A stretch of DNA of 64,000 nucleotides. It comes from Syntrophorhabdaceae bacterium. GTDB taxonomy: Bacteria > Desulfobacterota > Syntrophorhabdia > Syntrophorhabdales > Syntrophorhabdaceae. The notes beneath the pieces are model-generated. The model was given only the letters and a program-made list of their open reading frames with translations. It searched no databases and was not told the DNA's origin. Numbering within the stretch: position 1 is the stretch's first letter; every line of letters begins with the position of its first letter. The stretch spans positions 4,768,001-4,832,000 of the forward strand of contig OY762209.1 of assembly GCA_963665295.1 (NCBI GenBank), given 5' to 3'. Both the position numbers and the translations under genes were made by a program. Below are positions 9,472 to 59,183 of the stretch, one piece after another.

Positions 9472-10201
9472 CAATGTAAAATTCCTCTCCTAAATAGACC
9501 TCTCGCACTATCTTGTCTTTTGCCACATCTTCGGGGCTGCCCTCGAGGAGCACCTTCCCGTTGTTTACCACATAGGCCCGGTCACATATGGGCAGGGAAT
9601 CCCTCACATTGTGATCCGAGAGAAGTATGCCGATTTTTTTGCTCCTCAATCCGCTGATTACCTTTTTCAAATCCGAGACCGATATGGGGTCGATGCCTGA
9701 AAAAGGTTCATCGAGGAGCATGAAGTGAGGATTGGTCATGAGAGCCCGCGCTATTTCAAGCCTTCTCCTCTCGCCACCGGAAAGGGAGTCGGCATTATTG
9801 CGGGCCAGATGTTCCAGTTTGAAGGATTCAAGAATCTCCATCACCTTGTGGTCCATCAACTCCTTATCCACATCATGAAATTCCAGAATGGCCTTGAGGT
9901 TGTCCGCCACGCTCATCTTCTTGAATACCGACGGCTCCTGGGGAAGGTAAGTGATCCCCTTCCTCGCCCTCATGAACATGGGAAGGGACGTGATATCCTC
10001 AGTATCGAGCAGAATACTCCCTCCATTGGGTTTTATGAAACCGATTATCATATAAAAGGTGGTTGTCTTTCCGGCCCCGTTCGGCCCGAACAATCCCACC
10101 GTTTCGCCCGTATTTATATGTATGCTGATCCCGTCCACCACCCTCCTCGAGTTGTAGGACTTGGCCAGGTTCCGGGCAAAGAGCGTCGAAACCTCCGTCA
10201 T
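9458..10201 (-). CDS. lptB: LPS export ABC ATPase LptB
   Basis: GPNGAGKTT, YLPQEPSVF, LSGGERRRLEIAR and LLDEPFSGIDP motifs; directly upstream of rpoN. Confidence 0.95.
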   Translation of the reverse strand: MTEVSTLFARNLAKSYNSRRVVDGISIHINTGETVGLFGPNGAGKTTTFYMIIGFIKPNGGSILLDTEDITSLPMFMRARKGITYLPQEPSVFKKMSVADNLKAILEFHDVDKELMDHKVMEILESFKLEHLARNNADSLSGGERRRLEIARALMTNPHFMLLDEPFSGIDPISVSDLKKVISGLRSKKIGILLSDHNVRDSLPICDRAYVVNNGKVLLEGSPEDVAKDKIVREVYLGEEFYIDVGT

Positions 10202-44030: not shown

Positions 44031-44316
44031 AGGGTACGGATACTATTGTAAACAATACAGTTCCGCTCGGTATTTGCCGCCCGGGACATGGGAAGGGCCC
44101 GTTGTGCCGACCTGAAGGCTGGTTGAGCTGACGGACAAAAAAGGCGAAACAAATACCGTGATTGATGCGGGAACATATGGCATCAGAGGCGCGTTAAGTG
44201 GTATAGTTTATTCGGTTCTTTTTGTTGTTCTCGGAGACTTCGAGAGGAAAGATGGGAGGGGGACGGGGAGCACCGCCGGTAGCTTCCGCGTGTACAAAAC
44301 CAGTTACGGAGGACAC

Positions 44317-47300
44317 GTGAATTCTAGGTCAAAACCAAAAGCACACGAGCCCGAAGAAACCCTCTCCGTAGTGGGAATAGGCGCCTCTGCGGGTGGTCTC
44401 TATTCCCTCGAGTGTTTTCTGTCGGCCTTGCCTGAAAAATTTAATTTTCCTGTCGTTTTCGTGCAGCACCTTCCGGCAACCCACAAGAACCTTCTGCCGG
44501 AGTTGCTCCGTGCGCGAAGGTCCGACCTCGAAATTGAGGAAGCGTCCGACGGACTCCCTCTCCTTCCGGGACGGCTTTACCTGGCTCCGGCGGCTAAAGA
44601 GATCACAATCGAAAAAGGGAAGTTGAAGATATCTCCTTACGCCGATGGCCATATCCACCTTCCCATCGATGAGTTCTTTGTCTCCCTCGCCCGATATACC
44701 CCTGAACGGGCCACTGCGGTCGTCTTCTCCGGGGCAGGCACCGACGGCGCCCTCGGGGCACAGACTCTCAGGGAGGCGGGCGGCACCGTGTTCGTTCAAG
44801 ACCCCGAGACCGCCGAATTCGGCGCAATGCCCCTTGCCGCGATAAGCGCGGGACAGGTGGACGGCGTGCTTTCGCCGCAGGATATCGCCCGGGAAATCGT
44901 CAGGCTTCATGGAGAAGGGGCCTTGTCCGGACCCGGCGGAGACCTCGTCACCGCCAGGGAACTCGAACCGTTTTTCGGACTCATCCATAAGAAGACAGGA
45001 TACCGGTTCAACCATTACAAAAAGAGTGTCGTGGCGAGAAGGATCAGGCGGCGCATGTACCTGCGCTCAGTCCCTTCAGTGAAAGACTACCTTGACATGG
45101 TAGCGCACAAAGAGGGGGAGGCGGCAATGCTCGCGGCGGACCTCATGATCGGCGTCACTTCCTTTTTCAGGGACCAACTCGCCTGGAAAGCCCTTCATCT
45201 CGACGTGACGCGAAAAATCATCGCCGAAGAGAGCGACGCCCCCATCCGGGTCTGGACGCCCGCGTGCGCAACAGGGGAAGAGGCGTACTCCATCGCCATG
45301 ATGCTGGAGCAGGAACTTGAACTGGCGGGTAGGATGAGGGAGGTGCAGGTCTTCGCCACGGACGTGAACGAACGGGCCCTCGATAAGGCCCGGGAAGGCG
45401 TATACCCGTCGGGGGTGACTGCCGACGTCCCGGCGGAGTACATGAAAGAGTTCTTCAGCGAGTCCGAAGACCACCTCTCGGTGGTCATAAACAAAGACCT
45501 TCGCCAAAAGGTGGTGTTTGCGAAACACGACATCCTCGTCGACCCGCCCTTTTCACGACTGGACCTCGTGATCTGTCGCAATCTTTTGATCTACCTGGAA
45601 ACGGAGGCCCAGGAAAAGTGTATGTCCATCTTTCACTATGCCCTGAAAGAGAATGGATACCTCTTCCTCGGAAATGCCGAATCTCCGGGCCGGGACACCA
45701 ACCTCTTTGCCGCCCTTCCCCACAAAAAGTGCCGCGTCTACCGGAAGATGGAGGTCAAACCGCCCACGAAACTGCCGTTCCCGCCCGCTTTTGCCGCCGA
45801 ACAGTCCCCTCTCCTCTTTTCAGGTCCCCAAAAAAGCGTGGATTCCCGGCAATCGGCGGTACTCTTTATCCAGAATGCATTACTTGAAGAATACGCGCCG
45901 GCGGCCGTGGCCATAAATGGCGACTATGATATCGTGTATCTTAACGGCCCGACGCACAGATTTCTGCGCCAGCCCCGGGGGGTCCCCACCCTCAACTTGC
46001 TTGAGCTTCTTCATGAAAGACTCAGGAACCGGATCCGTGCGGCGGTTTACCGCGTAGTCCAGGAGAAAAAGCCTGTGTCGGTCCGTACCGGTATCCCTGA
46101 CGACGGAGGGAGGAGAAGACCGGTGACGATCCGCGTTTCAGGGCTGAAAGAAAACCTTCTTCTCATAGTCTTCCGCGAAAAGAACGGTGTGCCGGGGCAG
46201 GAAGACGCACTCTCCCTGGAGGCCACCGCTGTTGAAGAGACCGCGATGCGACAACTCGAAAACGAGCTATCCACGACACGCGATGACCTTCGAAGCAACA
46301 TTGAGCAACTACGGAGCCTCAATGAGGAACTGCATTCGTCGAATGAGGAACTTCAGGCGGCCAACGAAGAACTCGAGACATCAAGGGAAGAACTTCAGTC
46401 CCTGAATGAGGAGCTGATTACGGTAAATGCTCAGCTCCAGGCGAAGATCGAGGAACAGGAAGCGACTAATAACGACCTGAACAACTTCCTCGCGAGCGCG
46501 GATATTCCCACGATTTTCCTCGATCACCGGCTGCGGGTGCGCCGTTTTACCCCTGCCATGACGAGGTTGATCAAACTTGTCCCCCGGGATGCGGGACGTC
46601 CGATCAGCGACTTTTCACAGGAGAACCTCGGGGGTGACATCGTCCGGGATGCGGGGTCGGTACTCGAGCATCTTTCACCCGTCAGGAAGGAACTACAGAT
46701 CGGCGGCGTATGGTACGTCCGTACTGCCCTCCCGTACCGCACCTCTGACAACCGGATAGAGGGCGTGGTTATTTCCTTTGCGGACATAACGGAAAGCAAG
46801 CTGGCAGAAGAGAACACTCGACATCTCGCGTCTTTCCCCAGCATGAACCCGAACCCCGTGATAGAGATCGATGCCGGCGGCAAAGTGATCTTCCACAACC
46901 CGGCGACAGACAGGATACTCGAGGATCTCGGAATGAGCAAAGACAGCGTGGAGGTCTTCTTTCCCCACGATCTGAAGGATATCTTCCGGAACTGGGACGG
47001 TAAGCAGGGAACAAACCTTCTCCGCACGGTGAAGATAAAGGACCGTATCTTCGGTGAGTCCGTTTTCCTTCACCCCGGGTCTTCCGTGGCGCGGATCTAC
47101 GCCTTCGAGGTCACCGAACGGGAGCGTGCGGAAGAGGCGCTGAGGCAAAACGAAAAGCGGATGAACGCCGCCCAGGAAATAGCCCATCTCGGGGGTTGGG
47201 AGCTTGACCTCGTGAGCAACCACCTTTCCTGGTCGGACGAGGTATACCGTATCTTCGGTTTTACACCCGGGGAATTCGATGCCACCTACGAGGCATTTCT

Positions 47301-49956
47301 CGAAGTGGTGCACCCCGACGACCGGGCCGTCGTCTACGAAGCCTATTCCCGCTCTCTCAGGGAGGGGAGGGATACCTACGAAATCGAGCACCGTGTGATA
47401 AGGAGGTCGGACGGCGAGGTACGCATCGTCCATGAAAAATGCGAACACGTCCGCGACGGGTCCGGCCGCATTATCAAGTCTATCGGGATGGTGCACGATA
47501 TCACGGAGGCCAAGCAAGGAGAGGAAATCCTCAGGAAAAGTCTCGAAAGACTCGACATTATTTCGAGCACGGCAAGTCAGCTCCTTATGAGCCGGGAGCC
47601 GCAGAAGATCGTCGAGTCCCTGTGCCGGAGAGTCATGGAACACCTCGACTGCCATGCCTTTTTCAACTACCTTGTAGATGAAGGGGGCGGTTATCTCACT
47701 CTCAATGCATACGCCGGGATCCCGGAAGAAAATGCGCGGGAGATACATGTTCTCACCTTCGGGACCGCGGTGTGCGGATGCGCGGCGAGGGATGCGTGCA
47801 GGATCGTTGCCGAGCACATCCCTACCACGCCCGACATAAGGACCGACCTCGTCCGTTCCTTCGGCATCAAGGCCTACGCATGCCACCCTCTTCTCATCGA
47901 AGGACAGGTTATCGGGACCCTTTCATTCGGCACAAAGACGCGGCTTACCTTCGAGGAGGACGAACTCTCCCTCATGAAGAACGTAGCAGATCAGGTAGCC
48001 ACCGCCATGGAGCGCATGAAGCTCCTCCATTCCCAGAAGGAACGGGCGGACGAACTGCAGAGGCGGGTTGAGGAGAGAACCGCCGAACTGGCCCGGCAGG
48101 CAGGCCTCCTGGACCTCGCACACGACGCCATAATCGTAAGGGACGAAGACGGCAGGATCGGCTTCTGGAGTTCAGGCGCGGAAGACACCTATGGCTGGAC
48201 CAGAGAAGAAGCGCTCGGCAGGATTACCCACACGCTCCTCGAGACGAGGTTTCCCTTCCCTCTCACGGAGATTGATAACATTATCCGCACAAAAGGCCGT
48301 TGGGAAGGAGAACTCAGACATACCACGAAGGCCGGGAAACGCATTGTCGTGCTCAGCCGGTGGGCGGTAAGGCCTGGCGTGACCCCGGGGTCACACGAGA
48401 TTATGGAGATAAACTGCGACATTACCGACCGCAAGCACGCTGAAGAGATCCTTCGTGTGGCGGGTGAATATAACAGGAGTCTTCTTGAAGTAAGCCTCGA
48501 CCCCCTTGTCACCATCGACCGCGAGGGCAGAATCAGCGATGTCAATAAGGCCACGGAGAACGTAACCGGATATTCCAGGGAAGTCCTCATCGGCAAGGAC
48601 TTTTCCGACTACTTCACCGACCCTGAAAAGGCAAAGGCCAGCTACGAACTGGCGTTCAGGGAAGGACTTGTCCGGGACTACGAACTTTCGATCCGCCATC
48701 AGGACGGACATGTAACGCCGGTCTTTTACAATGCCTCCGTTTACAAGGACGCTTCAGGCAAGGTGGCGGGCGTGTTCGCGGCAGCCCGGGACGTCACCGA
48801 ACAGCGCCGTCTCGAAGAACACCTGCGACAATCGCATAAAATGGAAGCCATCGGCACCCTGGCGGGAGGCATCGCCCACGATTTCAATAATATCCTGGCC
48901 TCGATCCTGGGTTATACCGAAATGGCCGTGGAAGATGTGCCGGACCGTCCCGAGGTGGAAAAAAACCTCCGGAATGTGCTGAAATCGGCGGTCAGGGCGC
49001 GGGACCTCGTGAAACAGATACTCGCCTTCAGCCGGAAGAGCGATGAAGTGAGGAACCCCTTGTCCTTGTCACCCCTCATCGAGGAGACGGTGCAGTTCCT
49101 CAGGGCTTCGATTCCTACCACCATCGACATAAGGCTCGGGATGAGCGCGGGATCGGACACCGTCGTTGCATCGCCTACTGAAGTGCACCAGATACTCATG
49201 AACCTCTGCACCAACGCAGCCTCCGCCATGGAAGAAGGGGGCGGAGTTCTCGATATCAGCCTCGCCGGCATCGAATTCGGGCTCGATCCGACCTATCCCG
49301 GCCTCAACATACTGCCCGGGAAGTATGTCCGGCTCTCGGTAAGGGACACGGGCGCCGGCATGACCAAGGACATAATCAAGAGGGTATTCGAGCCGTTTTT
49401 CACCACCAAGGAAGTGGGCCGGGGTACAGGAATGGGTCTTGCGGTAGTCTACGGAATCGTGAAGGATTTGCATGGAGCCATCACCGTCGAGAGCGAACCC
49501 GGGACCGGTTCCGTCTTCCACGTATTTCTCCCCCTTGTGGAAGCCCACGTGGAAGAGGAGCATGGAGGCGCCGACGGCGTTCCCCGGGGCAGTGAGAGAA
49601 TCCTTTTTGTCGACGACGAGGACCTTCTTATGGAATGGGGGCAGGCAACCCTGGAACGGCTCGGCTATAAAGTGACGACGACCGCGGGCAGCGCCGAGGC
49701 CCTTGCCGTCTTTTCCAAGGACCCGTCCCGGTTCGACCTCGTGATCACCGATCAGACCATGCCTGTCATGACCGGGGTGCAACTGGCCGCCCGGATATTA
49801 TCCATGAGAAGCGACGTCCCGATTATCCTCTGTACAGGACACAGCGAAACGGTTTCGCCCGATCAGGCGAAGACCATGGGGATTCGCGAGTTCCTCATGA
49901 AACCCGTCACCAGGCAGGAGCTTGCCCATGCAGTCCGGCGGGCCCTCGACCGGTAG
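44317..49956 (+). CDS. CheB-CheR-PAS(n)-GAF-PAS hybrid histidine kinase with receiver domain
   Basis: CheB: GASAGG, VQHL, SGAGTDG. CheR: VTSFFRD, ACATGEEAYS, CRNLLIY. EELQAANEELETSREELQSLNEEL coil, several PAS/PAC, GAF, H-box AHDFNNIL, GTGMGL, REC DLVITDQTMP. Probable GTG start at 44317 after GGAGG; the ORF is open from 44158. Confidence 0.92.
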   Translation: MNSRSKPKAHEPEETLSVVGIGASAGGLYSLECFLSALPEKFNFPVVFVQHLPATHKNLLPELLRARRSDLEIEEASDGLPLLPGRLYLAPAAKEITIEKGKLKISPYADGHIHLPIDEFFVSLARYTPERATAVVFSGAGTDGALGAQTLREAGGTVFVQDPETAEFGAMPLAAISAGQVDGVLSPQDIAREIVRLHGEGALSGPGGDLVTARELEPFFGLIHKKTGYRFNHYKKSVVARRIRRRMYLRSVPSVKDYLDMVAHKEGEAAMLAADLMIGVTSFFRDQLAWKALHLDVTRKIIAEESDAPIRVWTPACATGEEAYSIAMMLEQELELAGRMREVQVFATDVNERALDKAREGVYPSGVTADVPAEYMKEFFSESEDHLSVVINKDLRQKVVFAKHDILVDPPFSRLDLVICRNLLIYLETEAQEKCMSIFHYALKENGYLFLGNAESPGRDTNLFAALPHKKCRVYRKMEVKPPTKLPFPPAFAAEQSPLLFSGPQKSVDSRQSAVLFIQNALLEEYAPAAVAINGDYDIVYLNGPTHRFLRQPRGVPTLNLLELLHERLRNRIRAAVYRVVQEKKPVSVRTGIPDDGGRRRPVTIRVSGLKENLLLIVFREKNGVPGQEDALSLEATAVEETAMRQLENELSTTRDDLRSNIEQLRSLNEELHSSNEELQAANEELETSREELQSLNEELITVNAQLQAKIEEQEATNNDLNNFLASADIPTIFLDHRLRVRRFTPAMTRLIKLVPRDAGRPISDFSQENLGGDIVRDAGSVLEHLSPVRKELQIGGVWYVRTALPYRTSDNRIEGVVISFADITESKLAEENTRHLASFPSMNPNPVIEIDAGGKVIFHNPATDRILEDLGMSKDSVEVFFPHDLKDIFRNWDGKQGTNLLRTVKIKDRIFGESVFLHPGSSVARIYAFEVTERERAEEALRQNEKRMNAAQEIAHLGGWELDLVSNHLSWSDEVYRIFGFTPGEFDATYEAFLEVVHPDDRAVVYEAYSRSLREGRDTYEIEHRVIRRSDGEVRIVHEKCEHVRDGSGRIIKSIGMVHDITEAKQGEEILRKSLERLDIISSTASQLLMSREPQKIVESLCRRVMEHLDCHAFFNYLVDEGGGYLTLNAYAGIPEENAREIHVLTFGTAVCGCAARDACRIVAEHIPTTPDIRTDLVRSFGIKAYACHPLLIEGQVIGTLSFGTKTRLTFEEDELSLMKNVADQVATAMERMKLLHSQKERADELQRRVEERTAELARQAGLLDLAHDAIIVRDEDGRIGFWSSGAEDTYGWTREEALGRITHTLLETRFPFPLTEIDNIIRTKGRWEGELRHTTKAGKRIVVLSRWAVRPGVTPGSHEIMEINCDITDRKHAEEILRVAGEYNRSLLEVSLDPLVTIDREGRISDVNKATENVTGYSREVLIGKDFSDYFTDPEKAKASYELAFREGLVRDYELSIRHQDGHVTPVFYNASVYKDASGKVAGVFAAARDVTEQRRLEEHLRQSHKMEAIGTLAGGIAHDFNNILASILGYTEMAVEDVPDRPEVEKNLRNVLKSAVRARDLVKQILAFSRKSDEVRNPLSLSPLIEETVQFLRASIPTTIDIRLGMSAGSDTVVASPTEVHQILMNLCTNAASAMEEGGGVLDISLAGIEFGLDPTYPGLNILPGKYVRLSVRDTGAGMTKDIIKRVFEPFFTTKEVGRGTGMGLAVVYGIVKDLHGAITVESEPGTGSVFHVFLPLVEAHVEEEHGGADGVPRGSERILFVDDEDLLMEWGQATLERLGYKVTTTAGSAEALAVFSKDPSRFDLVITDQTMPVMTGVQLAARILSMRSDVPIILCTGHSETVSPDQAKTMGIREFLMKPVTRQELAHAVRRALDR

Positions 49957-50087: not shown

Positions 50088-50120
50088 AGGGGCCGTCCGC
50101 GTCGATCGCGGACGGCCCCT
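50088..50120. terminator. Hairpin between the convergent kinase and glutamate-synthase-like operon
   Basis: Perfect 14-bp stem AGGGGCCGTCCGCG-TCGAT-CGCGGACGGCCCCT. Confidence 0.65.
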
Positions 50121-50176: not shown

Positions 50177-52834
50177 TTACTCCTCCTCGTCCCACTCCTC
50201 ATTCATCACCAAAGCGGTGGTGCCGCCGGCGAGGACCGACAGTTTTACTGCCCCAATGGTGCGATAGACTTCGCTTGGGCTCCGTTTCCTGCCGTCCACC
50301 ATGAGGAGGTGGTCTTCAATGGATACGCCGAGGAGGCGTTCGTTCTCTCTCAAATAAGGTAGTATCAACTCCCAGTCTTTATCGTCAAAAGGCATTATCT
50401 GTCCTCCGTTCAACTGCTCCTGAACGATCGTCCCGTGAGGGTCGCGGACAAATATCGCCCCTCCCGAGGCGAGGGAGAAGAGGTTGGAGCCCGGGTACGG
50501 CGTATCGAGGGGGATCACCTTCCCGTCGTCCCCAAAGGTGAGACCGTTCAGGATCACGAAGCCGCCGCCGTTGTATGGGTCTCCCGCCATAAACGATTCC
50601 GCGAGGAAATCGAGGGCCGTGCCGTTAATCACGACTCTGGGCTTGCCGGCGGCATTGATGAGCGGACGCCCCGCCGCATTGCCGAGCACATAGACTTCTC
50701 CGCCCTTGGCCCCGTACATGAACGTCTGGCCCACGTCGCCGTACACGACGAGTTTGCCCGACTTGAGTATCTGTCCAAGTTGGTCCTGGGCGTTGCCGTG
50801 GACATGTATCTCAAGGCCGTCGATACCTGATGCAAGGTAGTCGCCGGTGGAATCGAAGGCATCGATGCGCACACCCGTAGAGTTGGGACCGAATCCGCAA
50901 CCCAGAAAGCGCTGTCCCCGATGGCCGAAACATATGAACCGTTTCCACCCTAGCTTATAGGCATTGGATATAAGGCTTGCAAAGGAATCATCGCCTTCCG
51001 GCGGAAATTTGCCTGCGTCGGCCACAAGCACCCGCTCACCCGACTCGGGAGCCCTGAGCGCAAGGCGACTGTCCCAATCGATCCGCCGTCCGTAAAGCAC
51101 GGCTCCCTTTGCATCGATCAGGGGAATCGCCCTGAAGATCGAATCGAGGGTGTTCGAAACCATCTGCAGCACCGACCTCCGTCTCTTGCTCCCAAGAGAA
51201 TAGCGCCTGTCGAGAAGACGGGAAAGAAGGCCGATTACCGGGCCTTTCAGATCATCCTCTTCCGCAAGGGCGGTGAGAAGGTCGAGGAACGTATAAAATC
51301 TTGAATAATCCCACTTCGCAAACCCCTCTTTCAAGTCGCTGAAGAGTTTTTCCGTGTTCTTCTTTGACAATTCCCTTACGATCGTCCTCAAGTTGTCTAC
51401 ATGGAAAGTAGGCGTACGAGGCAGCTCCGTGCGAAAATCATGAGGCGTCTGGTCTTTCGGGACATCGATGGCGCGTCCGAATTTGTCCGTGCACGTAAGG
51501 TCCATCTTGCCGGGCATCGACTCCTTCACGGTAAAGATGAACGCGCCGCCGTCCGTATAGCTCCCGCCGCGGGCGTTCCAGTATCTGTCGGCCACGGTCC
51601 CGAAACGGGGATCTTCTTCCGCAAGACTCGCGAGGGTGGCATCTAATGCCTGCTTTTCCGAGCAGATAAGACCTATCTCCACTTCACCCTTTTGAAGGGC
51701 GAAGACCTGGGGCCTCAGCATCGCCGTATCGGTGATACCGATGAGCTGGTACTGTTTGTTCTGAACATCCGTGCGGGCAATGATAAAGAACCATGGTCCG
51801 TCGGGAGAACCGTGGATATGGGCCGCCTGGATCTGTCTGTAGATGGGTTGTTTTTCCCGGGGAAGGTGATCGAAGTCCATCTCTCCCGTAGGTGCAAGGG
51901 CTTCGATGATATATTCCAAGGGATAACCGTAGACCCTGTTCAAAAGGTCGAATACCTGCACGGAAACCTCCGTATCCGTGAGGAACAGGGGATAGACGTT
52001 CCGTTGTTTCAAATATTCGGAAACCGAATAATAGTTCGCGAAGTCTCCATTGTGCACCAGGGCCTCGTCGAGCCCGATGAAGGGATGGGCGCCGCCCGGA
52101 TGCCACACGCGGCCTTTCGTCGGATAGCGCTGGTGAGCTATCCATATATGGGCATCGAAGTTCTCAAGTTTGTAGTACTGCGCCACCTGTTCGGCATAAC
52201 CCACGATCTTGAGTATCATCATGTTCCTGCCGTGAGAAAGGACGAAGGCTCTCTTTTCGCCAAGGGCGCTGTAAAGGTTCAGATTCAATTGGTACGTATT
52301 CTGATAGACGAACTCTTCTTCCGCCTTGTAATCGGGAAGCATCTCAAGGCGCCGCTCCTTCTTGAAGGCGGCGAGGACTTCGGGTTTTACCCTCACAAAA
52401 TACCGTTTCACCTGGGGGGGCTTCATTTCGAGGCCCGGCACATCCCTGTAGTCATCCACTGTTTCGATGAAGGATTCATGGTCAACCCGGAAGAAAGGCC
52501 TGATAAAGCGCGCTTCAAGCTCGGGCACCACTGTTTCATCGAGGAGCGCTATCTGAAGAAGAAAATCATTGTCGAGTATCTCCCGGCTTACCCCGAGTTT
52601 TTCGGGAGTGAGTCCTACTGCCGAGAGACCCCCGCCCTTACCGTTTCCCCTGTTGTGCATCTGTATGGAGGGCTCGATGATGTGACGACCGCTCACGGGG
52701 ATGTTACAAACAAAACCGGTAACCCCGCATCCACCTTCTTCCGCCTCTATGCCGGCCTGTTTTACACGTGCTTCAGCGTCCCGGAAGTGGTAGCGCGCAT
52801 CTATTATTGCTTCTCTTATGCTTCTCTGTTTCAT
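50177..52834 (-). CDS. Glutamate synthase-like subunit: class II (Ntn) glutamine amidotransferase plus C-terminal GXGXG domain
   Basis: EEGG-CGVTGF nucleophile after a ~35-aa leader, HNRG, AHQRYPT, AHPF, HNGDFAN, TDTE. GXGXG motifs GQRFLGCG, GNAQDQLG, GDVGQTFMYGAKGG. Confidence 0.85.
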   Translation of the reverse strand: MKQRSIREAIIDARYHFRDAEARVKQAGIEAEEGGCGVTGFVCNIPVSGRHIIEPSIQMHNRGNGKGGGLSAVGLTPEKLGVSREILDNDFLLQIALLDETVVPELEARFIRPFFRVDHESFIETVDDYRDVPGLEMKPPQVKRYFVRVKPEVLAAFKKERRLEMLPDYKAEEEFVYQNTYQLNLNLYSALGEKRAFVLSHGRNMMILKIVGYAEQVAQYYKLENFDAHIWIAHQRYPTKGRVWHPGGAHPFIGLDEALVHNGDFANYYSVSEYLKQRNVYPLFLTDTEVSVQVFDLLNRVYGYPLEYIIEALAPTGEMDFDHLPREKQPIYRQIQAAHIHGSPDGPWFFIIARTDVQNKQYQLIGITDTAMLRPQVFALQKGEVEIGLICSEKQALDATLASLAEEDPRFGTVADRYWNARGGSYTDGGAFIFTVKESMPGKMDLTCTDKFGRAIDVPKDQTPHDFRTELPRTPTFHVDNLRTIVRELSKKNTEKLFSDLKEGFAKWDYSRFYTFLDLLTALAEEDDLKGPVIGLLSRLLDRRYSLGSKRRRSVLQMVSNTLDSIFRAIPLIDAKGAVLYGRRIDWDSRLALRAPESGERVLVADAGKFPPEGDDSFASLISNAYKLGWKRFICFGHRGQRFLGCGFGPNSTGVRIDAFDSTGDYLASGIDGLEIHVHGNAQDQLGQILKSGKLVVYGDVGQTFMYGAKGGEVYVLGNAAGRPLINAAGKPRVVINGTALDFLAESFMAGDPYNGGGFVILNGLTFGDDGKVIPLDTPYPGSNLFSLASGGAIFVRDPHGTIVQEQLNGGQIMPFDDKDWELILPYLRENERLLGVSIEDHLLMVDGRKRSPSEVYRTIGAVKLSVLAGGTTALVMNEEWDEEE

Positions 52835-52907
52835 ATCAAGACCTCATTTTCTTGGGGTAGAGCTTTCTCATTCAGTGCACGGCGCGGAATGCAAAACATT
52901 GTCCGCT

Positions 52908-54428
52908 CTAGATGTCCAGTTCCCCGTCTATCTCTTCCTTCTTTATGTAGTCAAGATGGGCGATTACATCAAAACGCCCCGTCAATTCCGTAACGCTCTT
53001 CATACCAAACCGCTTGAGGATGGAGACAAGCTGTCTGCGCCACACCGTGTACATATTGATGATACGCTGTGTTGCCCATTCCAGGTTCATGAGACCCGTG
53101 AGCCCTTCATCCGTAGTGGCAATCCCGCGGGCGCATCCCCGGCCCGACTCGCAGTGGTGACAGCGAATGCATTCAAGGGCCACGAGATCGGCGGTCCCGA
53201 GACAGACGCCGTTGGCGCCCATGGCGATCGCTTTTGCAAGATCGTAAGCCGAGCGTATGCCGCCGCTCGCTATGATGGTTATATTGTCCCTTATACCCTC
53301 TTCGCAGAGAAACTTGTGTACTTTGGGGAGGGCATATTCGATAGGCATGGCGATATTCTTCTTCGCGATATCAGGGGCTGCCCCTGTTCCGCCGTAGCTT
53401 CCGTCGAGCTGCACGATATGTGCCCCCGCGTAGTAGCTTCCCACCGCAACCATGTCGACATCCGTGGGGGTCGAAACCTTCACGGACACGAGGGCGCGCG
53501 GGTTTGTCTCCTTTATCCAGTCCACATGTTTCTTGTGGTCTTCAACCGAGTAGACGCTGTGAAAGGGGAACGGCGAAAAAAGGGCGCTCCCGGGCACGGC
53601 CTCGCGCATGGCAGCCACGCGGGGCGTTACCTTATCGCCAAGAAGGTGGCCTCCCAGACCTGGTTTCGCGCCCTGGGCGTATTTGAATTCCACTATCCTC
53701 ACTCTTTTGATCGTCTCTTCTCTGACGCCGAAAAGGCCCGTTGCCACCTGGGTAATAATGTGGTCGTCATAGGGCATAAGCTCTTCAGGGTATCCGCCCT
53801 CGCCCGTACAGCAGAAGGTATTCAGAGCCGAAGCGGCTCTGACGCGGGAGAGCATGGTTACAATACTTACGGAACCGAAGGACATGCCGCCGAGATAAAA
53901 AGGAACCGGGATGGTAATCCTGGGTCGCGAATCTCCGGAACGGTTCAACTCGATGGCCGTCGAAATCTCTTCTTCCGCCACCGGGGCCTTGTCCTGGGTG
54001 GGAAAGATGAAACGAAGCTTGTCGAAGCCGCCGCCCGAATCACCGGTTTTATAGTTCAGGTCCTGGTGCGGAATATTCCCTGTTTCCGCCATATGCCAGG
54101 TACCCGCAAGAAGTTCTGCGGGCCACCGTCTGTCTCCGAGTATCTCGAAGGACGGATTAAGGCTCAGGTGTATGGCCTTCTCCGGGCATCTGGTCACGCA
54201 GTGAAAATCATTCTTGCTGCAGGGAAAACCAAGGCAGAGGTGGTCCAGCGCGGGCTTGGGTCTCTTCTTCCCGGCCCTGAAGACCCCGTGGGGACAAAGG
54301 TCCACACATAGTCCGCAGTTATTGCACGCCTTGCTCACCGCCACGCGATACTTGCCAAGGGCATTACGGAAGCGGCTCGGCACCGGCTTAATTTCAGGAA
54401 ATGTGAATGTTCGTGATTCGCTTGCCAT
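52908..54428 (-). CDS. Glutamate synthase FMN-binding (synthase) subunit with N-terminal ferredoxin domain
   Basis: CNNCGLCVDLCP, GGMSFGS, TGEGG, QVATG.FGV, EFKYAQGAKPGLGGHL, DGSYGGTGAAP, ASGGIR and CIRCHHCESGRGC motifs. Confidence 0.9.
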   Translation of the reverse strand: MASESRTFTFPEIKPVPSRFRNALGKYRVAVSKACNNCGLCVDLCPHGVFRAGKKRPKPALDHLCLGFPCSKNDFHCVTRCPEKAIHLSLNPSFEILGDRRWPAELLAGTWHMAETGNIPHQDLNYKTGDSGGGFDKLRFIFPTQDKAPVAEEEISTAIELNRSGDSRPRITIPVPFYLGGMSFGSVSIVTMLSRVRAASALNTFCCTGEGGYPEELMPYDDHIITQVATGLFGVREETIKRVRIVEFKYAQGAKPGLGGHLLGDKVTPRVAAMREAVPGSALFSPFPFHSVYSVEDHKKHVDWIKETNPRALVSVKVSTPTDVDMVAVGSYYAGAHIVQLDGSYGGTGAAPDIAKKNIAMPIEYALPKVHKFLCEEGIRDNITIIASGGIRSAYDLAKAIAMGANGVCLGTADLVALECIRCHHCESGRGCARGIATTDEGLTGLMNLEWATQRIINMYTVWRRQLVSILKRFGMKSVTELTGRFDVIAHLDYIKKEEIDGELDI

Positions 54429-54432
54429 TACA

Positions 54433-55815
54433 TCAACCCCTTTTGCCCATTCCGGCGAAGATTTCTTTCTCAAGGTCCTCGAAAAACATGGCACGGCCCA
54501 TCTCGCCCCTCAGCCGTCTTACCTCGCGGATACCCATGGCCCCAAGGGTCTCGAGGAGCTGACTGTGCCAGCCGGCCATGAGATTGCGGACGCGGGCCGA
54601 ACCCCATACGGGATTCACGCTCTCCAGATCCACCGGACAGGCGATGCCTTCCTTACAACGGCGGCACACCCTGCATTCCATGGCCACAAGGAGAGGTATG
54701 TCCACGGCGACAGCGTCTGCGCCGCATATGATCTGCTTTGTCACATGCTCCGCCATGGCAATCCCACCGCCCGCGATCAGGGTGATCTGGTCCCTCACGC
54801 CCTTTTCCACAAGATGGAGGTGTATCTCCTTCATCCGGTCTTTTATGAAGAGGGGCCGGGCGGCTTTCTCGCGGCCGAACTCGTCGGCCACAAGGTGTAT
54901 TACTTCAGCGCCGTCGATAGCAAGGCCGAGTATGGCTCCGGAAGCGTCGGGATTAAGTTCCATCCTTATCATCACCACGATGCCCGGGTTCTTTTCCTTG
55001 ATCTTCTTCTGCAGCGCCATGACATCCTTGCCGTGGGGCACTTCTATCATGCGCAGTCGGCCCACCACGGCCGGATCAAGATCGTCCGGTTTTCCGTCAA
55101 CGTAAAGCACCATATTGGAAAGGTACTTCTCCATGTCGGGCCGGTAGTCGCTTTGACGGACGATGCAAAAGGTACCGAGTGATCCGGCTCCTTCGAGGAG
55201 CGCCGTCGTTATCCGTTCCCTCGGGGGCGACCATGGCAGAATATCGAAAATAATGGGCAAGGGTATCTCTACAAGAGGCGGCGGGGTTGTCATTAGCGCT
55301 CCCGACGAGTCGAATTCGAGGGCCATCACCTTTCGGCCTACATCCACCGTGGTGCTTATATACTCGCGGCCATGAATACCATCTCTGGTAGGCCGCACGA
55401 TTTCCGACATATCCGTCCACATGGCATCGAATCCGGGGCCTGAAAACGGTCCACCGTAACCGCCGCCTGAAACGGGAATACGTCCCGCTTCCGCCTGGAA
55501 CCAGAGCCCGGCAATGATCTCCGGCGTCCAGTAATGGTCGCCAAGGACTTTATAGGAAGGGTTAACACCCTTTTGGATCAATCTGTTGGGACAGTTCTGC
55601 ACACAACGGAAGCAGTCTTTGCAGACGCTGTCAAGGGATTCGAGCATCTGGCGTGAATCGATGCCGCGTTTCTCGTATACCTTGTAAACACAGTCCTTCT
55701 TCACGCAACGCGCACACTTGAGGCACCCTTCCTCCCACGCGATGACACCCGACCGGGTGATCGACTGGAATCTGTTCGGCGCCTGATTGGTCTGAATATG
55801 GTATTTAAGAGGCAT
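54433..55815 (-). CDS. Degenerate glutamate synthase FMN-barrel paralog with N-terminal ferredoxin domain
   Basis: CLKCARC...CKDCFRCVQNCP; FSGPGFD.MW.DMSEIVRP; IAGGGI...GADAV...CRVCRRC...CP. Lacks the MSFG, GEGG and QGAKPG motifs. Confidence 0.8.
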   Translation of the reverse strand: MPLKYHIQTNQAPNRFQSITRSGVIAWEEGCLKCARCVKKDCVYKVYEKRGIDSRQMLESLDSVCKDCFRCVQNCPNRLIQKGVNPSYKVLGDHYWTPEIIAGLWFQAEAGRIPVSGGGYGGPFSGPGFDAMWTDMSEIVRPTRDGIHGREYISTTVDVGRKVMALEFDSSGALMTTPPPLVEIPLPIIFDILPWSPPRERITTALLEGAGSLGTFCIVRQSDYRPDMEKYLSNMVLYVDGKPDDLDPAVVGRLRMIEVPHGKDVMALQKKIKEKNPGIVVMIRMELNPDASGAILGLAIDGAEVIHLVADEFGREKAARPLFIKDRMKEIHLHLVEKGVRDQITLIAGGGIAMAEHVTKQIICGADAVAVDIPLLVAMECRVCRRCKEGIACPVDLESVNPVWGSARVRNLMAGWHSQLLETLGAMGIREVRRLRGEMGRAMFFEDLEKEIFAGMGKRG

Positions 55816-55827
55816 ATCGTTACTCCT

Positions 55828-56751
55828 CTAGGCCAGGGGTCGCGGAGAAAGTCCTGACCTTTCCACGAGTTCCGGGACCACATCTTCCCATTCTATTGCC
55901 ATAATATGGACCCCGCTCACACCGTCCATTTCTTTCAAAGCCTGGATCGTCTCCACGGCGATTTTCACGCCTTCCTGACGCTGGTCTTTTGCGGGCACCG
56001 ATTTCATCCTCTCTATCACCGACTCGGGGACATCCATGCCTGCCACCTGTTTGGCCATGTACTCCGCCATTCTCGCGGATTTGAGGGGCGTAATGCCGCC
56101 GAGGATGTACACTTGTTTGTCGAGTCCAAAATCCTTTACAAGCCCCATCCACTCCTTGAACCGGGGCACGTTATAGATGCACTGGGTCTGAATGAATTCC
56201 GCCCCTGCGTCAACCTTCTTCGCGAGCCTTGTTACGCGGTATTTGAAGGGGTCGGCAAAGGGATTCGCCACGGCACCGATAAATAGTCTCGGAGGTTCCG
56301 TCAGTTTCTCTCCGCCGATCACCTGACCGAGGTCTCTCATCTGACGGACCGTCTGGATTAACTGGATCGAGTCAATGTCAAAAACACCCTTCGCCTGTGG
56401 CTGGTTACCGAAGGATTGGTGGTCGCCGGAAAGGCAGAGGATATTCCGGATGCCCAGGGCGGAAGCCCCGAGGATGTCCGACTGCAGCGCAATACGGTTA
56501 CGGTCACGGGTCACCATCTGGAGTACGGGATCGAGCCCTTCTCCCTTGAGGAGTGCGCACGCGGCAAGACTGCACAGGCGGACCACGCCCGTCTGGTTGT
56601 CCGTGACGTTTACACTGTCCACGTGCCCTTTGATGATCTTTCCTTTGTTCTTTATCGCATCGGGATCAGCCCCTTTTGGCGGCCCGCACTCGGCGGTAAC
56701 GGCAAAGTGGCCTCCGGTAAGAACCTTTTTAAGCTGGCTTTCAGTTTTCAC
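55828..56751 (-). CDS. metF: Methylenetetrahydrofolate reductase MetF
   Basis: TAECGPP, VTDNQ, RDRNRIALQSDILGA, LSGD and KKVDAGAEFIQTQ motifs. Confidence 0.92.
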   Translation of the reverse strand: MKTESQLKKVLTGGHFAVTAECGPPKGADPDAIKNKGKIIKGHVDSVNVTDNQTGVVRLCSLAACALLKGEGLDPVLQMVTRDRNRIALQSDILGASALGIRNILCLSGDHQSFGNQPQAKGVFDIDSIQLIQTVRQMRDLGQVIGGEKLTEPPRLFIGAVANPFADPFKYRVTRLAKKVDAGAEFIQTQCIYNVPRFKEWMGLVKDFGLDKQVYILGGITPLKSARMAEYMAKQVAGMDVPESVIERMKSVPAKDQRQEGVKIAVETIQALKEMDGVSGVHIMAIEWEDVVPELVERSGLSPRPLA

Positions 56752-57416
56752 GTTTTCTGATCCTCCCTATGGATTTTCCTTGGTCCCTTTCCCTGTTGCT
56801 TCGACCAATCCGCAGGGGGATGTACCTTTTTGAGAAGGTCAAGCCGACCCATCTCATCAAGTCTGGCAATTATGATCTGCCATGCGCATTCCGTGTCCGG
56901 ATCAACCTCGCAACGATCGGTTCTGGAGCCTCCGCACGGACCATTGAAAAGCCCTTTTGCGCAACGGGTAACGGGACAGACAGCGGCAAAAAATCCGAGC
57001 TTGCAGTCACCACATGCCCGGCAACTCTCCACCCAGACGCCTGCTTCCTTTGTCTCTCCGATGAAGGTCGTATTCAGGGCGGGAACGATATGGACCTTCG
57101 GGAAGACCTCGGCAACGGCCTGCACGCCGGCGCCGCACCCCAGGGACAGAACCACATCATACCGGTCGATCACTTCCGTCAGTTGGTCGATGAACTCATA
57201 GACACACTGACGGTCCAGGGTCATTTCCTCGACCTCTATCTCCTTGCCGGACGCCTTGGCGTCCATGCGGAGTTGTGAGGCGAGAAGCCCTGTCTCTTTC
57301 TCCCCTCCCGACGCGCATTCCGCCACGCAGGTACCGCATCCGACCACGAGGATCTTCCTGTACGGCTCTATCATTTCTTTGATTTCCGATAAAGGCTTTC
57401 TTTCCGCTGTTATCAT
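56748..57416 (-). CDS. metV: MetV (Fe-S/Zn small subunit of MetFV; MTHFR C-terminal-domain family)
   Basis: GCGTC, RQC, GCGAG, CRACGDC, CPVTRCAKG..NGPCGG and CEV....CAW motifs. 4-bp overlap with metF. Confidence 0.88.
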   Translation of the reverse strand: MITAERKPLSEIKEMIEPYRKILVVGCGTCVAECASGGEKETGLLASQLRMDAKASGKEIEVEEMTLDRQCVYEFIDQLTEVIDRYDVVLSLGCGAGVQAVAEVFPKVHIVPALNTTFIGETKEAGVWVESCRACGDCKLGFFAAVCPVTRCAKGLFNGPCGGSRTDRCEVDPDTECAWQIIIARLDEMGRLDLLKKVHPPADWSKQQGKGPRKIHREDQKT

Positions 57417-57456
57417 GCTCTTACTCCTTCGTGATTAACCACTATTATCTCCGGAT

Positions 57457-57876
57457 CTATTTCTCTCTCACCGGTGAGAAGCCCACAGAGGCTTCCCTGG
57501 CAAGCAGCTCCCGCGCCAGTTTATCAACCGTAACGGACTCGCCCGGTGCCAGGGCGATCACTTCCAGGCGCTGCCCCTCGAGGCCGATCTCTTCTATCAA
57601 CCCCCGGGTATATGCAACGCGCTTCCTGGCCCGTGTATTGCCTTCACGATAGCGGCACGCCCCTTCAGGGCACGTGACCAGGTACACCATGTCCGCCCCT
57701 GCTTCAAAGGCGCGCATAAGGTGGAGGGAATCGATCCGGCCGCTGCACGGCAGCGGGAAAAACCTTATCCGGTCACCCAATTCCTTTTCCAGGGCCCGTC
57801 TGTTTGCATCCTGCGCAGGATCTAGTTGCTCGCAGAAGAATATGGAAACGTTTAATCCAGCGGTTTTCTGGTCCAT
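57457..57876 (-). CDS. mvhD: MvhD-like [2Fe-2S] protein (hydrogenase iron-sulfur subunit delta family)
   Basis: FFC...LPCSGRID...AFEAGAD.V.LVTCPEGACRY.EGN..A..RV...IGLE..RL. AAGGGA RBS before the ATG at 57876. Confidence 0.85.
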   Translation of the reverse strand: MDQKTAGLNVSIFFCEQLDPAQDANRRALEKELGDRIRFFPLPCSGRIDSLHLMRAFEAGADMVYLVTCPEGACRYREGNTRARKRVAYTRGLIEEIGLEGQRLEVIALAPGESVTVDKLARELLAREASVGFSPVREK

Positions 57877-57905
57877 AAAGCTGTCCCTTCTTATCCTTGT
57901 GACAT

Positions 57906-57937
57906 AAATAAAAAAAACGCCCTCATCGGACGCCTTT
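57906..57937 (-). terminator. Leader intrinsic terminator (attenuator) of the mvhD-metVF-glt operon
   Basis: Minus strand AAAGGCGTCC-GATGA-GGGCG-TTTTTTTT, lying between the promoter and the first ATG. Confidence 0.7.
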
Positions 57938-57968
57938 GTCTCGCCTTCAATGACACCCCGTTGTGTCA
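57929..57968 (-). promoter_or_regulatory. ANTAR-type tandem stem-loop RNA element
   Basis: P1 TGACAC-AACGGG-GTGTCA and P2 GAC-AAAGGC-GTC. Both have 6-nt loops with A1/G4, closed by C-G, joined by a 10-nt linker. P2 overlaps the 5' arm of the terminator. Confidence 0.75.
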
Positions 57969-57980
57969 AATTAGCAAATA

Positions 57981-58009
57981 AGATTACCAGATTAGAAAAT
58001 ACTTGTCAA
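57981..58009 (-). promoter_or_regulatory. Sigma70 promoter for the mvhD-metVF-glt operon
   Basis: TTGACA (58009-58004), 17-bp spacer ending in TGn (extended -10), TAATCT (57986-57981). Confidence 0.65.
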
Positions 58010-58050: not shown

Positions 58051-58860
58051 TCACGAACCTTTCGCCGGCCCCCGGGCAGGTTCCTTCGGGTTCCGCCGCG
58101 CCATCGATTTCTTTTCCTTCCCCCTCCCGTCTTCCATAAAGAGATTCATAAGCCTTCTGAAATGCATGGAGGACTCTATGAACGTTCTAAAGTTAATCAA
58201 GAAACGGCCGGTTTGGTCCTCGAACCTTTCCTTCAACGCCGCGCTGTCGCAGATAATCTTTTCCGTGTCGACTTTCCCTCGTTCCGCCTTCATCCATTCT
58301 TCTATCATCAAATGGGTAACCTCCGGGTGAAATTGCAAACCGTAGGCGCTTCTTCCCATCCTGAATGCCTGATTCCTGCACGTCTTCCCGCGGGCCAGGA
58401 GCAAACCGCCTTCAGGAATGCCGAAGGTGTCCTCGTGCCATTCAAAGACCGTGAACTGCCGCGAAAAGTCCTTGAAGAGCGGGTCCTTCGCACCTTCGTC
58501 CGTCACATGCACAGGGTAGAACCCCACTTCCCTGCGAGCGGCTTTTACAACCTTCGCTCCACAAGTCTTTGCGAGAAGTTGCGCTCCCAGACATATGCCC
58601 AGCATGGGCAATTCGTCTATCAGCGTCCTCCGTATCAAATGCTCCTCTTCTTCAAGAAAAGGGTACCCGGCGATCTGGTACACATTCATGGGACCTCCGA
58701 GAACGATTACCGCGGCGAAGCTGTCGATGGACTCAGGCAGTCTCCCGCCGCTGCCGAGTTCGACGATTTCCAGGTCCCATCCGTCGTTTCCGAAGAATGT
58801 CCCGATGAGCCCCGCACCCTCCTGTTCCACATGTTTTATTATAAGAATCCTTCTGTCCAT
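58051..58860 (-). CDS. Class I glutamine amidotransferase (GMP-synthase-like, stand-alone)
   Basis: LGGPMNVY, LGICLGAQ (nucleophile Cys), WHEDTF and LQFHPE (His-Glu) motifs. Confidence 0.88.
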   Translation of the reverse strand: MDRRILIIKHVEQEGAGLIGTFFGNDGWDLEIVELGSGGRLPESIDSFAAVIVLGGPMNVYQIAGYPFLEEEEHLIRRTLIDELPMLGICLGAQLLAKTCGAKVVKAARREVGFYPVHVTDEGAKDPLFKDFSRQFTVFEWHEDTFGIPEGGLLLARGKTCRNQAFRMGRSAYGLQFHPEVTHLMIEEWMKAERGKVDTEKIICDSAALKERFEDQTGRFLINFRTFIESSMHFRRLMNLFMEDGRGKEKKSMARRNPKEPARGPAKGS

Positions 58861-59183
58861 TCGGAACCTCTGTTCACGCACGCACGTGCCGCCTTGAACG
58901 GCATCGTTCGGTATTCGCCCCTGTCTCTCTGAAACAGGCGACGATTGCCGTTCCGCGCTAATGCGAAAATATCGCTTCATATTATACAAGTACCTGTTCT
59001 GTGCGGATTGTTAACCGTCGGGAATATGAGTGTCCGGCGGGTACCCTTGACTGAGGGTACAAGGACGCATTATGGTTGGTTTAGGGCCGAACGTTACCGG
59101 TCTCGGGAAAGGACCGGGGCTATCCACCTGAATTTGCGCCATGCGCCCGATGGGCCGGCGGCACATGAAAGAGAGGAGAAACG

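Follow-up and report, generated by a model that had tools for sequence, protein, structure and literature searches.

A conserved cluster with a glutamate synthase lacking GltD and an exchangeable upstream arm, possibly a folate reductase that supplies its electrons

Introduction

Glutamate synthase is the main gate through which nitrogen enters biomass, and its textbook electron sources are NADPH through the GltD subunit, NADH, and ferredoxin. What, then, supplies the electrons when the genes of the enzyme stand without gltD and directly behind genes of folate chemistry? This question is raised by a locus in the genome of a Syntrophorhabdaceae bacterium (GenBank assembly GCA_963665295.1), of which we analysed a stretch of 64,000 nucleotides (contig OY762209.1, forward-strand positions 4,768,001 to 4,832,000; hereafter the window). 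Between window positions 50,177 and 58,009, six co-oriented genes occupy the minus strand in the order mvhD, metV, metF, dBar, aBar and GATGX. Here dBar is our label for a shortened barrel protein of the ferredoxin-flavin mononucleotide (FMN) kind, aBar stands for an intact one, and GATGX for a fusion of a glutamine amidotransferase (GATase) with a GXGXG domain. These last three genes are called the core, and the genes set before the core the arm.

The original prediction, made from the DNA letters, held that MvhD-MetV-MetF may take the place of GltD, so that methylene-/methyl-tetrahydrofolate (THF) chemistry would be coupled to glutamate metabolism. We found that the constant unit across genomes is the core, a glutamate synthase without a pyridine-nucleotide subunit, and that the arm is exchangeable. 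It is probable that the MetVF-MvhD proteins and the glutamate synthase (Glt) proteins share electrons in some way. The reading that we favour is narrower, namely that the six gene products make up a single self-contained glutamate synthase without GltD, in which MetF feeds electrons from methyl-THF to the core, and we give it a probability of roughly 0.35.

Results and Discussion

The core carries the catalytic parts of a glutamate synthase

Pfam matches and recomputed coordinates confirmed the six genes as real and co-oriented (Table 1), together with the intergenic gaps of 40, -4, 12, 4 and 73 bp from mvhD to GATGX that had been given before. The accompanying claim that the window contains no gltD, hdrABC or methionine synthase gene was upheld in a Pfam scan of its 51 open reading frames, and Pfam detected no NAD(P)H-binding protein encoded in the operon.

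The intact barrel aBar covers positions 55-368 of the PF01645 profile, substrate segment included. It was matched to the FMN domain of Azospirillum GltB (PDB 1EA0/2VDC) with an expectation value (E) of 2e-49, and the AQGAKPG.GG and GGTGA segments were aligned. The three cluster cysteines of the Azospirillum enzyme are likewise aligned and are joined by a fourth, giving the motif CxxCxxCx5C. In GATGX, the GATase part has GlmS/PurF-type matches, and the GXGXG beta-helix domain (PF01493, 47.1 bits, residues 656-810) has FwdC-type matches. An invariant EEGG-CGV(T/V)GF segment follows a propeptide of ~35 residues in all orthologue rows that were in register, which excludes those of loci L058 and L158. 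The propeptide stands ahead of the putative catalytic cysteine and is predicted to be processed; bacterial GltB is also synthesised with a propeptide. As judged from sequence, the GltB-type catalytic parts (FMN barrel, Ntn GATase, GXGXG and cluster cysteines) are all present.

The second barrel, dBar, had been described as degenerate, which is right as far as truncation is concerned. It is 25% identical to aBar, matches the Glu_synthase profile at positions 260-367 of 369 only and misses the GltB substrate segment, but its ferredoxin domain, C-terminal barrel half and four-cysteine motif are all retained. Decay, the other meaning of the word, was not borne out. In an alignment of 74 orthologues, columns are on average 70% identical and 12 cysteines are invariant, the CxxCxxCx5C motif does not vary, and residues 113-155 hardly do; dBar is among the best-conserved proteins of the set, and a decaying pseudogene is ruled out. 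An AlphaFold2 model of dBar reached a mean predicted local distance difference test (pLDDT) score of 79.4, with the barrel blocks mostly above 90, and a Foldseek search with this model returned the FMN domain of a GltB (7mfm_G) as best match, next to other FMN barrels. Given this conservation and the likeness of its model to FMN barrels, dBar is a conserved and probably non-catalytic electron-relay subunit.

The genome is closed (5.5 Mb), and PF01645 found just three places in it: aBar (304.9 bits), dBar (47.6 bits), and a weak partial match elsewhere (25.9 bits). Since two of these are weak or partial, the cluster holds the only complete glutamate synthase barrel of the genome. Six carrier genomes were checked, and in four of them (the window's included) PF01645 gave no further strong match; a classical GltB of 1475 residues occurs in G006, and a second barrel with 185 bits in G005. 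The window's genome further encodes one glutamine synthetase, in a frame of 723 residues ~10 kb beyond the window, and two glutamate dehydrogenases. Eight GltD-like (Fer4_20) matches exceeded the cut-off. None is near the cluster, and the nearest lies ~140 kb away inside an HdrL of 1466 residues that consists of HdrA plus a GltD-like part. This HdrL belongs to a canonical HdrC-HdrB-HdrL-MvhD-MetV-MetF string (genome 4.68-4.69 Mb) with the second methylene-tetrahydrofolate reductase (MTHFR) of the genome. The suggested check for other metF, gltBD and hdrA copies thus returned a second, canonical locus and no gltD beside the barrel.

The arm before the core is exchangeable

To survey the linkage, we searched with dBar, using one genome per species, which gave 216 relatives; the best 80 loci were kept. 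All six genes were found in the window's order in 58 of these 80, and five had the order MvhD-dBar-aBar-GATGX-MetV-MetF; nearly all others were interrupted by contig ends. The linkage is therefore conserved across genomes, as the prediction required. Record titles name Nitrospirota, Syntrophorhabdaceae, Syntrophaceae, Desulfobacteraceae, Desulfarculaceae, and Spirochaetota. In the window, dBar is up to 87% identical to Nitrospirota-labelled copies and 72% identical to a copy from its own family, which indicates that the string has moved between lineages as a unit.

We also searched an even sample of 301 genomes of the window's phylum with a dBar profile. dBar was present in 91 of them, full-length and intact in 89 and split in two. 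The 20 kb around 88 full-length dBar genes were classed together with the window (the two split ones being left out), and arms were counted in those 53 loci where 2.6 kb or more could be seen to either side. The most frequent arrangement was the window's own, MvhD-MetV-MetF-core (27 loci), followed by MvhD-core (8), a GlcD-like dehydrogenase before the core (5), MvhD-core-HdrL-MvhD-(MetV-(MetF)) (5), and MvhD-MetV-core, in which dBar starts ~18 bp after metV (4). Hdr genes upstream with two mvhD occurred twice, MvhD-MetF-core-HdrC-HdrB-HdrL once, and the core alone once (locus L231, where no partner was detectable). By partner, MvhD was present in 47 of the 53 loci, MetV in 37, MetF in 33, and HdrL in 7.

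The shortened barrel itself belongs to the synthase. Among 1033 longer relatives of dBar at E <= 1e-10, the top 120 were all dBar-aBar fusions of ~960-1070 residues, with titles from Latescibacterota, Phycisphaerae, Chloroflexota, Kiritimatiellae, and Thermodesulfobacteriota. In 11 genomes of the phylum sample dBar and aBar likewise share one open frame of 975-1086 residues, of which the one scanned with Pfam (L150:9091-12090) encodes a single protein of 999 residues.

The clearest exchange concerns the GlcD-like arm. Here a flavin adenine dinucleotide (FAD) dehydrogenase of ~620 residues with its own 2x[4Fe-4S] domain replaces MvhD-MetVF upstream of dBar in L153-L155, where it is 29-54 bp away, and also in L234-L236; its carriers belong to the same phylum, one of them to the window's own family. 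In L147 (4966-12552) a single chain of 2528 residues runs through FAD_binding_4, FAD-oxidase_C, 2x[4Fe-4S], dBar, aBar, GATase and GXGXG, and adjoins glnA. According to tblastn hits, L148 also has the GlcD-like part, dBar, aBar, GATase and GXGXG in one frame, and dBar-like sequence was found inside frames of 2366-2548 residues in seven genomes of the sample. A substrate dehydrogenase can thus be a built-in partner of the core, and where the two form one chain, it is hard to see any other donor than the substrate of that enzyme. The GlcD-like form may be a hydroxyacid-driven glutamate synthase, for which D-lactate or D-2-hydroxyglutarate would be guesses.

A folate enzyme as possible electron donor

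We next consider what the window's own arm could do. The ATG start of mvhD was set by alignment with 64 orthologues, and the cysteines C15, C44, C69 and C74 of its product are invariant in the 65 sequences. By the same alignment, a TTG frame of 170 residues that reaches position 57969 was rejected as mvhD, its extra part being leader and not protein. metV and metF overlap by 4 bp, and a MetF with an adjacent MetV is the arrangement of a MetVF-type reductase. Since solved MTHFRs gave only distant matches to MetF (E 9e-10 or weaker, with the Escherichia coli enzyme unmatched), its conservation was judged against Hdr-linked paralogues: of the 108 columns without variation among 14 Hdr-linked MetF sequences, 95 are preserved in the glt-linked clade, and MetF looks catalytic. 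Identity to the Hdr-linked set of the same genome is 60% for MetF, 48% for MetV, and 38% for MvhD.

In the mechanism that we favour, the GATGX protein would free ammonia from glutamine, and aBar, with its FMN and iron-sulfur clusters, would reduce 2-iminoglutarate to glutamate. MetF would oxidise 5-methyl-THF to methylene-THF, and the two electrons would pass from the MetF flavin over MetV and MvhD to the clusters of dBar, which as a non-catalytic paralogue of aBar with three cluster-binding motifs would relay them to the aBar FMN and so to 2-iminoglutarate. An ANTAR-type terminator/antiterminator leader would turn the operon on. We infer that the six proteins assemble into one complex, and likewise the sequence of carriers along the electron path, its direction, the donor, and control by ANTAR. 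MetF is taken as the donor site by analogy with the GlcD-like arm, and because the operon offers no other site for an external reductant save the ferredoxin-like domains; methyl-THF is a tentative choice of donor. The genome encodes an acetyl-CoA synthase, with a pterin-binding methyltransferase nearby, so methyl-THF should be a central intermediate here. The methylene-/methyl-THF couple lies at about -200 mV and NAD(P)H at about -320 mV, and by a rough estimate the glutamine-driven amination of 2-oxoglutarate lies clearly higher than the folate couple. Transfer from methyl-THF to glutamate synthesis would therefore be downhill.

Several observations weigh against this proposal, as do the limits given below for the tree comparison and the structure prediction. 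MetF is absent from 20 of the 53 clusters and is thus not a universal partner; the eight loci with MvhD alone before the core and the four with MvhD-MetV but no MetF belong to these. In L021 (9388-11377) a MetF C-terminal remnant of 33 residues is all that stands between mvhD and dBar, and the locus looks like a natural metV-metF deletion. Among the top 120 of the 1033 longer dBar relatives (up to 2300 residues), no MTHFR, MetV or MvhD domain was fused to the barrel. The ferredoxin-like domains of both barrels could accept electrons from ferredoxin without MetF. In addition, genome G253 (L165, G253:C65; 99% complete and of the window's family) has the glt-linked copy as its only MTHFR, so that this MetF must also work in the ordinary reductive direction. 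G253 is an exception in this respect. Two or more MTHFR matches were found in 39 of 40 genomes with the standard order, in which the glt-linked copy is an extra one, and five of six sampled genomes of the GlcD type had no MTHFR match better than a weak one (E 1e-19 to 1e-24).

The idea that MvhD-MetV-MetF replaces GltD has held up in one part: the arm is exchangeable, and elsewhere a GlcD-like dehydrogenase sits in its place, in some cases fused. The other part, that MetF chemistry drives glutamate synthesis, is tentative in view of the 20 clusters without MetF, the 47 with MvhD, and the Hdr genes in some. A broader statement would be that these clusters represent a large class of modular glutamate synthases, the core being powered by a plug-in substrate dehydrogenase and not by NAD(P)H or free ferredoxin; the plug-in would be MetF with 5-methyl-THF here and a GlcD-like hydroxyacid dehydrogenase or an Hdr module elsewhere. 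We regard this generalisation as doubtful.

Hdr genes in related clusters

The HdrL-bearing strings (7 of the 53 loci, some with two mvhD) count against MetF as the source and suggest instead that NAD(P)H supplies an Hdr hub. In such an arrangement, MvhD would dock the MetVF-Glt proteins onto the HdrL/HdrBC flavoprotein encoded ~140 kb away, and the GltD-like part of HdrL would take in NAD(P)H. There would then be two high-potential acceptors, methylene-THF at MetF and 2-iminoglutarate at aBar, and downhill transfer to them may power a flavin-based electron bifurcation to ferredoxin. This would agree with the position of MvhD as the most constant partner of the core, and where such systems have been purified or solved, MvhD serves as the HdrA adaptor. 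Related operons also mix Hdr genes with the core, as HdrC-HdrB-HdrL-MvhD-MetV-MvhD-MetF-dBar-aBar (L156, L229), as MvhD-core-HdrL-MvhD-MetV-MetF (L176, L178, L180), and, in a member of the same family as the window's organism (L216), as MvhD-MetF-core-HdrC-HdrB-HdrL; in G253 the glt string with the only MTHFR continues into HdrC-HdrB, where the contig ends. Each of the ten further genomes examined has an Hdr-linked type of MvhD-MetV-MetF locus, as does the window's, and an HdrL match was found within the stretch examined in all of them except G007.

As an account of the window's operon we hold the Hdr hub to be unlikely, though close behind the reading that we favour. The 27 clusters of the window's type have no Hdr gene in the string, the HdrL locus of the window's genome has an MvhD-MetVF set of its own, and variants with a GlcD-like arm, fused or not, do without MvhD and Hdr. 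The HdrL locus itself (C1:4679174-4689170, spanning L006 and L007) is followed by genes for an FMN reductase-like protein and a PP-loop ATPase.

Two recruitments of MetVF

We then asked whether the glt-linked MetF copies form a clade of their own. The MetF tree comprised 99 rows, with every MetF copy of ten carrier genomes added along with its neighbours and 25 fragments dropped. The 61 standard-order glt-linked MetF sequences formed one clade, with a Shimodaira-Hasegawa-like approximate likelihood ratio (SH-aLRT) support of 83 and an inner node at 98, nested among HdrL-MvhD-linked MetF. This nesting, which is a further point for an Hdr hub, indicates that the arm stems from a duplicated client of Hdr. 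The five MetF sequences from rearranged clusters formed a separate clade (99), several supported nodes away. Glt-linked copies thus do have clades of their own, and there are two of them. Forcing all 66 together cost 160.9 log-likelihood units, with a p-value of 2.2e-5 in the approximately unbiased (AU) test, which is optimistic because the group was chosen after the identity values had been seen. From the two separate clades and the AU test we conclude that, on the sequence evidence, MetVF joined the glutamate synthase genes at least twice.

This bears on a further explanation, in which two separate enzymes are merely co-transcribed: an MvhD-MetVF that makes methyl groups for anabolism, and a split glutamate synthase of the ferredoxin type, with nothing in common except a nitrogen-responsive promoter and leader. 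Two recruitments are poorly explained by chance or by mere co-regulation. The movement of the string as a unit between lineages and the status of the glt-linked MTHFR as an extra copy in 39 of the 40 genomes counted speak against co-transcription alone as well, and we know of no role of MvhD on its own. The metV-metF-dBar junctions are tight (gaps of -4 to 12 bp) and, together with the single promoter and leader, argue for a functional link. On the other side, the core does without MetF in 20 of the 53 loci and in one of them without any detectable partner, the fusions one would look for were absent from the top 120 longer relatives, and the predicted binding scored weakly. Taken together, we think it improbable that nothing but transcription is shared.

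That binding score comes from the one pair for which complex formation was predicted, MvhD with dBar. With alignments, the pair scored 0.52 (runs of 0.74, 0.27 and 0.52), as compared to 0.00 for the best control; the runs agreed in at least 65% of contacts, and the pLDDT of the partners was at least 82. In the calibration of the fold score, 116 of 157 solved complexes and 2 of 215 mismatched pairs passed. Scores of 0.60 or less accounted for only 18 of the passing solved complexes and for both passing mismatches, and without a good prior reason to expect binding, a weak pass of this kind will mislead more often than not. The model hence gives weak support to MvhD-dBar binding, and the structural check proposed for all six proteins yielded, for this pair, a weak pass.

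Ferredoxin as a possible direct donor

The 2x[4Fe-4S] ferredoxin-like domains on both barrels raise another alternative, in which reduced ferredoxin feeds MetV, MvhD and the barrel domains over shared wires, and MetF and aBar both work reductively. In vitro, MetVF enzymes purified from acetogens oxidise reduced ferredoxin, and the operon has no site for NAD(P)H. The four loci with MvhD-MetV before the core and no MetF fit as well, since MetV can evidently serve there without MetF chemistry. Three points make us rate a purely ferredoxin-driven system as quite unlikely: it gives no reason for the double recruitment of MetVF, it leaves the substrate dehydrogenase found in the same place elsewhere unexplained, and it would spend low-potential electrons on two high-potential acceptors.

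Comparison with known systems

GltBD of Azospirillum brasilense (PDB 1EA0, 2VDC, 6S6S) resembles the core in the aBar FMN-domain alignment, the Ntn GATase with propeptide, the GXGXG domain, and the Foldseek match of the dBar model. It differs in being a single chain of 1500 residues where the cluster has three proteins and no adjacent GltD. The cluster moreover has a ferredoxin domain before each barrel, a fourth motif cysteine, a second, truncated barrel, and an amidotransferase so divergent that it matched no GltB chain by sequence. Ferredoxin-dependent glutamate synthase (Synechocystis, PDB 1OFD and 1LLW; aBar against the FMN domain, E 6e-46) shares the lack of GltD and the entry of single electrons into an iron-sulfur cluster and FMN; unlike the cluster, it is one chain with free ferredoxin as donor, and has no MvhD, MetV, MetF or second barrel.

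The split, so-called archaeal-type glutamate synthase has a separate amidotransferase, a ferredoxin-fused FMN subunit, and a GXGXG subunit; we found no paper under that phrase. The ferredoxin-barrel fusion, the separate subunits and the absence of GltD are common to both, whereas here GATase and GXGXG form one protein of 885 residues, dBar is extra, and MvhD-MetVF stands alongside. N-methylglutamate synthase MgsABC of methylotrophs is a three-part GltB-like enzyme that links glutamate and one-carbon metabolism. It has amidotransferase, GXGXG and FMN parts and a similar one-carbon tie, but it belongs to an aerobic methylamine pathway and lacks MetF, MetV, MvhD, ferredoxin domains and a second barrel.

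The type system for methylene-THF reduction with Hdr is the MetFV-HdrABC-MvhD enzyme of Moorella thermoacetica. MvhD, MetV and MetF are all common to such Hdr-linked sets and the window, whose MetF branches among theirs; in the window's string HdrA/L, HdrB and HdrC are missing, and glutamate synthase subunits adjoin MetF instead. Sets of hdrL and mvhD genes are also known from Desulfobacterium autotrophicum (PMC2702500). A full-text literature search aimed at the linkage or the enzyme type, to which supplements did not belong, found no description of either, and the passages of papers in which it touched on glutamate synthase dealt with other contexts.

If the proposal is right, nitrogen assimilation would have a fourth power source, in which electrons reach the synthase over MvhD/MetV from an enzyme of folate metabolism, an Hdr hub or a dehydrogenase of hydroxyacids, and this may save energy. 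Carbon-pathway intermediates at about -200 mV would be coupled directly to ammonia assimilation, and in the form with an Hdr module, electron bifurcation could make nitrogen assimilation energy-conserving. With dBar in 91 of 301 genomes of the phylum, this would matter for a large share of the strictly anaerobic bacteria of sediments, aquifers and digesters. It would also give "extra" MetVF and MvhD copies a physiological role and bear on the partners of MetVF-type reductases. The genes are compact enough for heterologous expression.

Promoter, leader and possible ANTAR control

The operon had been placed behind one promoter/attenuator, and both elements are present (Table 1). The -10 hexamer of the sigma-70-like promoter matches the consensus in three of six positions only, and a consensus promoter scan did not list the site; TTGACA and an A/T-rich -10 element are kept in the aligned upstream regions of relatives. 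A sigma-54 promoter in the leader (TGG..TTGC) was considered and dropped in favour of the TTGACA site, as its spacing is one base too long. The leader is ~100 nt long. It contains hairpin P1 (57968-57951, hexaloop AACGGG), mini-hairpin P2 (57940-57929, hexaloop AAAGGC), and a terminator (57937-57913 plus T-run) whose 5' arm overlaps P2. The fold, at -24.5 kcal/mol (z -2.14), includes P1 and the terminator, and the promoter/hairpin/terminator layout was seen again in 11 relatives. At gathering thresholds, Rfam found two tRNAs in the whole window and no known riboswitch in the leader.

According to passages of one study (PMC3369931), ANTAR substrates have dual hexaloops with A at position 1 and G at position 4, and their second hairpin excludes a terminator; the same passages place putative ANTAR substrates ahead of glutamate synthase genes in Desulfotomaculum reducens. 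Both P1 and P2 fit the A1/G4 rule. The genome has one GAF-GAF-ANTAR protein, and about ten other loci have GAF-ANTAR genes in the stretch around the cluster, which in L150 means immediately ahead of mvhD. Because P2 has only 3 bp, and because the leaders of the Nitrospirota type differ and have unclear hexaloops, ANTAR-type control of the operon is a lead and not a finding.

A looser motif (a P1-like CAC-AAnGGn-GTG hairpin followed by a terminator) occurred at just one other site in the genome, C1:2646848 on the plus strand (L237:2848). Downstream of it are small unassigned open reading frames and, 2 kb on, a class I/II aminotransferase gene, with no obvious nitrogen gene. The region upstream of the type-III glutamine synthetase gene showed no ANTAR-type leader. 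With one other site that has no nitrogen gene and none at glutamine synthetase, a nitrogen regulon of such leaders is unsupported.

Table 1. Features of the operon and its surroundings (window coordinates) and GlcD-like genes of related loci (locus coordinates)
Feature	Position	Strand	Match or source	Description
Class-I glutamine amidotransferase gene	58051..58989	-	PF00117, 77 bits	directly upstream, ahead of promoter
Sigma-70-like promoter	57981..58009	-	read from sequence	TTGACA (58009-58004), 17-bp spacer, TAATCT (57986-57981)
Leader RNA	57913..57968	-	terminator scan and RNA fold	hairpin P1, mini-hairpin P2, intrinsic terminator
mvhD	57457..57876	-	PF02662, 83 bits	MvhD/FlpD-type iron-sulfur adaptor, 139 aa
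metV	56748..57416	-	PF12225, 121.5 bits	cysteine-rich small subunit, MetVF-type methylene-THF reductase
metF	55828..56751	-	PF02219, 130.3 bits	MTHFR catalytic subunit, genome's second copy
dBar	54433..55815	-		460 aa; N-terminal 2x[4Fe-4S] ferredoxin domain, shortened TIM barrel, CxxCxxCx5C motif
aBar	52908..54428	-	PF01645, 303.5 bits	506 aa, start ATG at 54428; N-terminal ferredoxin domain
GATGX (GATase II-GXGXG fusion)	50177..52834	-	PF13522 and PF01493	885 aa, Ntn amidotransferase with propeptide
Inverted repeat, perfect, 14 bp	50088..50120	.		arms 50088-50101 and 50107-50120, 100% complementary
GlcD-like gene	L153:7115-8965
GlcD-like gene	L154:10788-12680
GlcD-like gene	L155:10497-12368

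Surroundings of the operon

The 14-bp hairpin noted earlier near the operon end is exact, with fully complementary arms, and sits 57 bp past the last stop codon between convergent genes. Upstream, the class-I amidotransferase gene has counterparts in a like position, ~400 bp or less from mvhD, in 21 of 80 related loci; it is a conserved neighbour and a candidate only as a member of the unit. The window also contains rpoN, for sigma-54 (8083-9474, minus strand), with lptB/lptC-like genes, and there is no good sigma-54 site ahead of the operon. Several loci, mostly Nitrospirota-labelled, have one more, distant Glu_synthase-like barrel 3-6 kb downstream of the cluster, with 23-33% identity to aBar (L009:15471-16952, L017, L024, L028, L038, L047, L050, L059, L062). 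In the window, the gene that converges on the operon end (44158-49956, plus strand) encodes a CheB-CheR-PAS-GAF-histidine kinase-receiver protein of 1932 residues.

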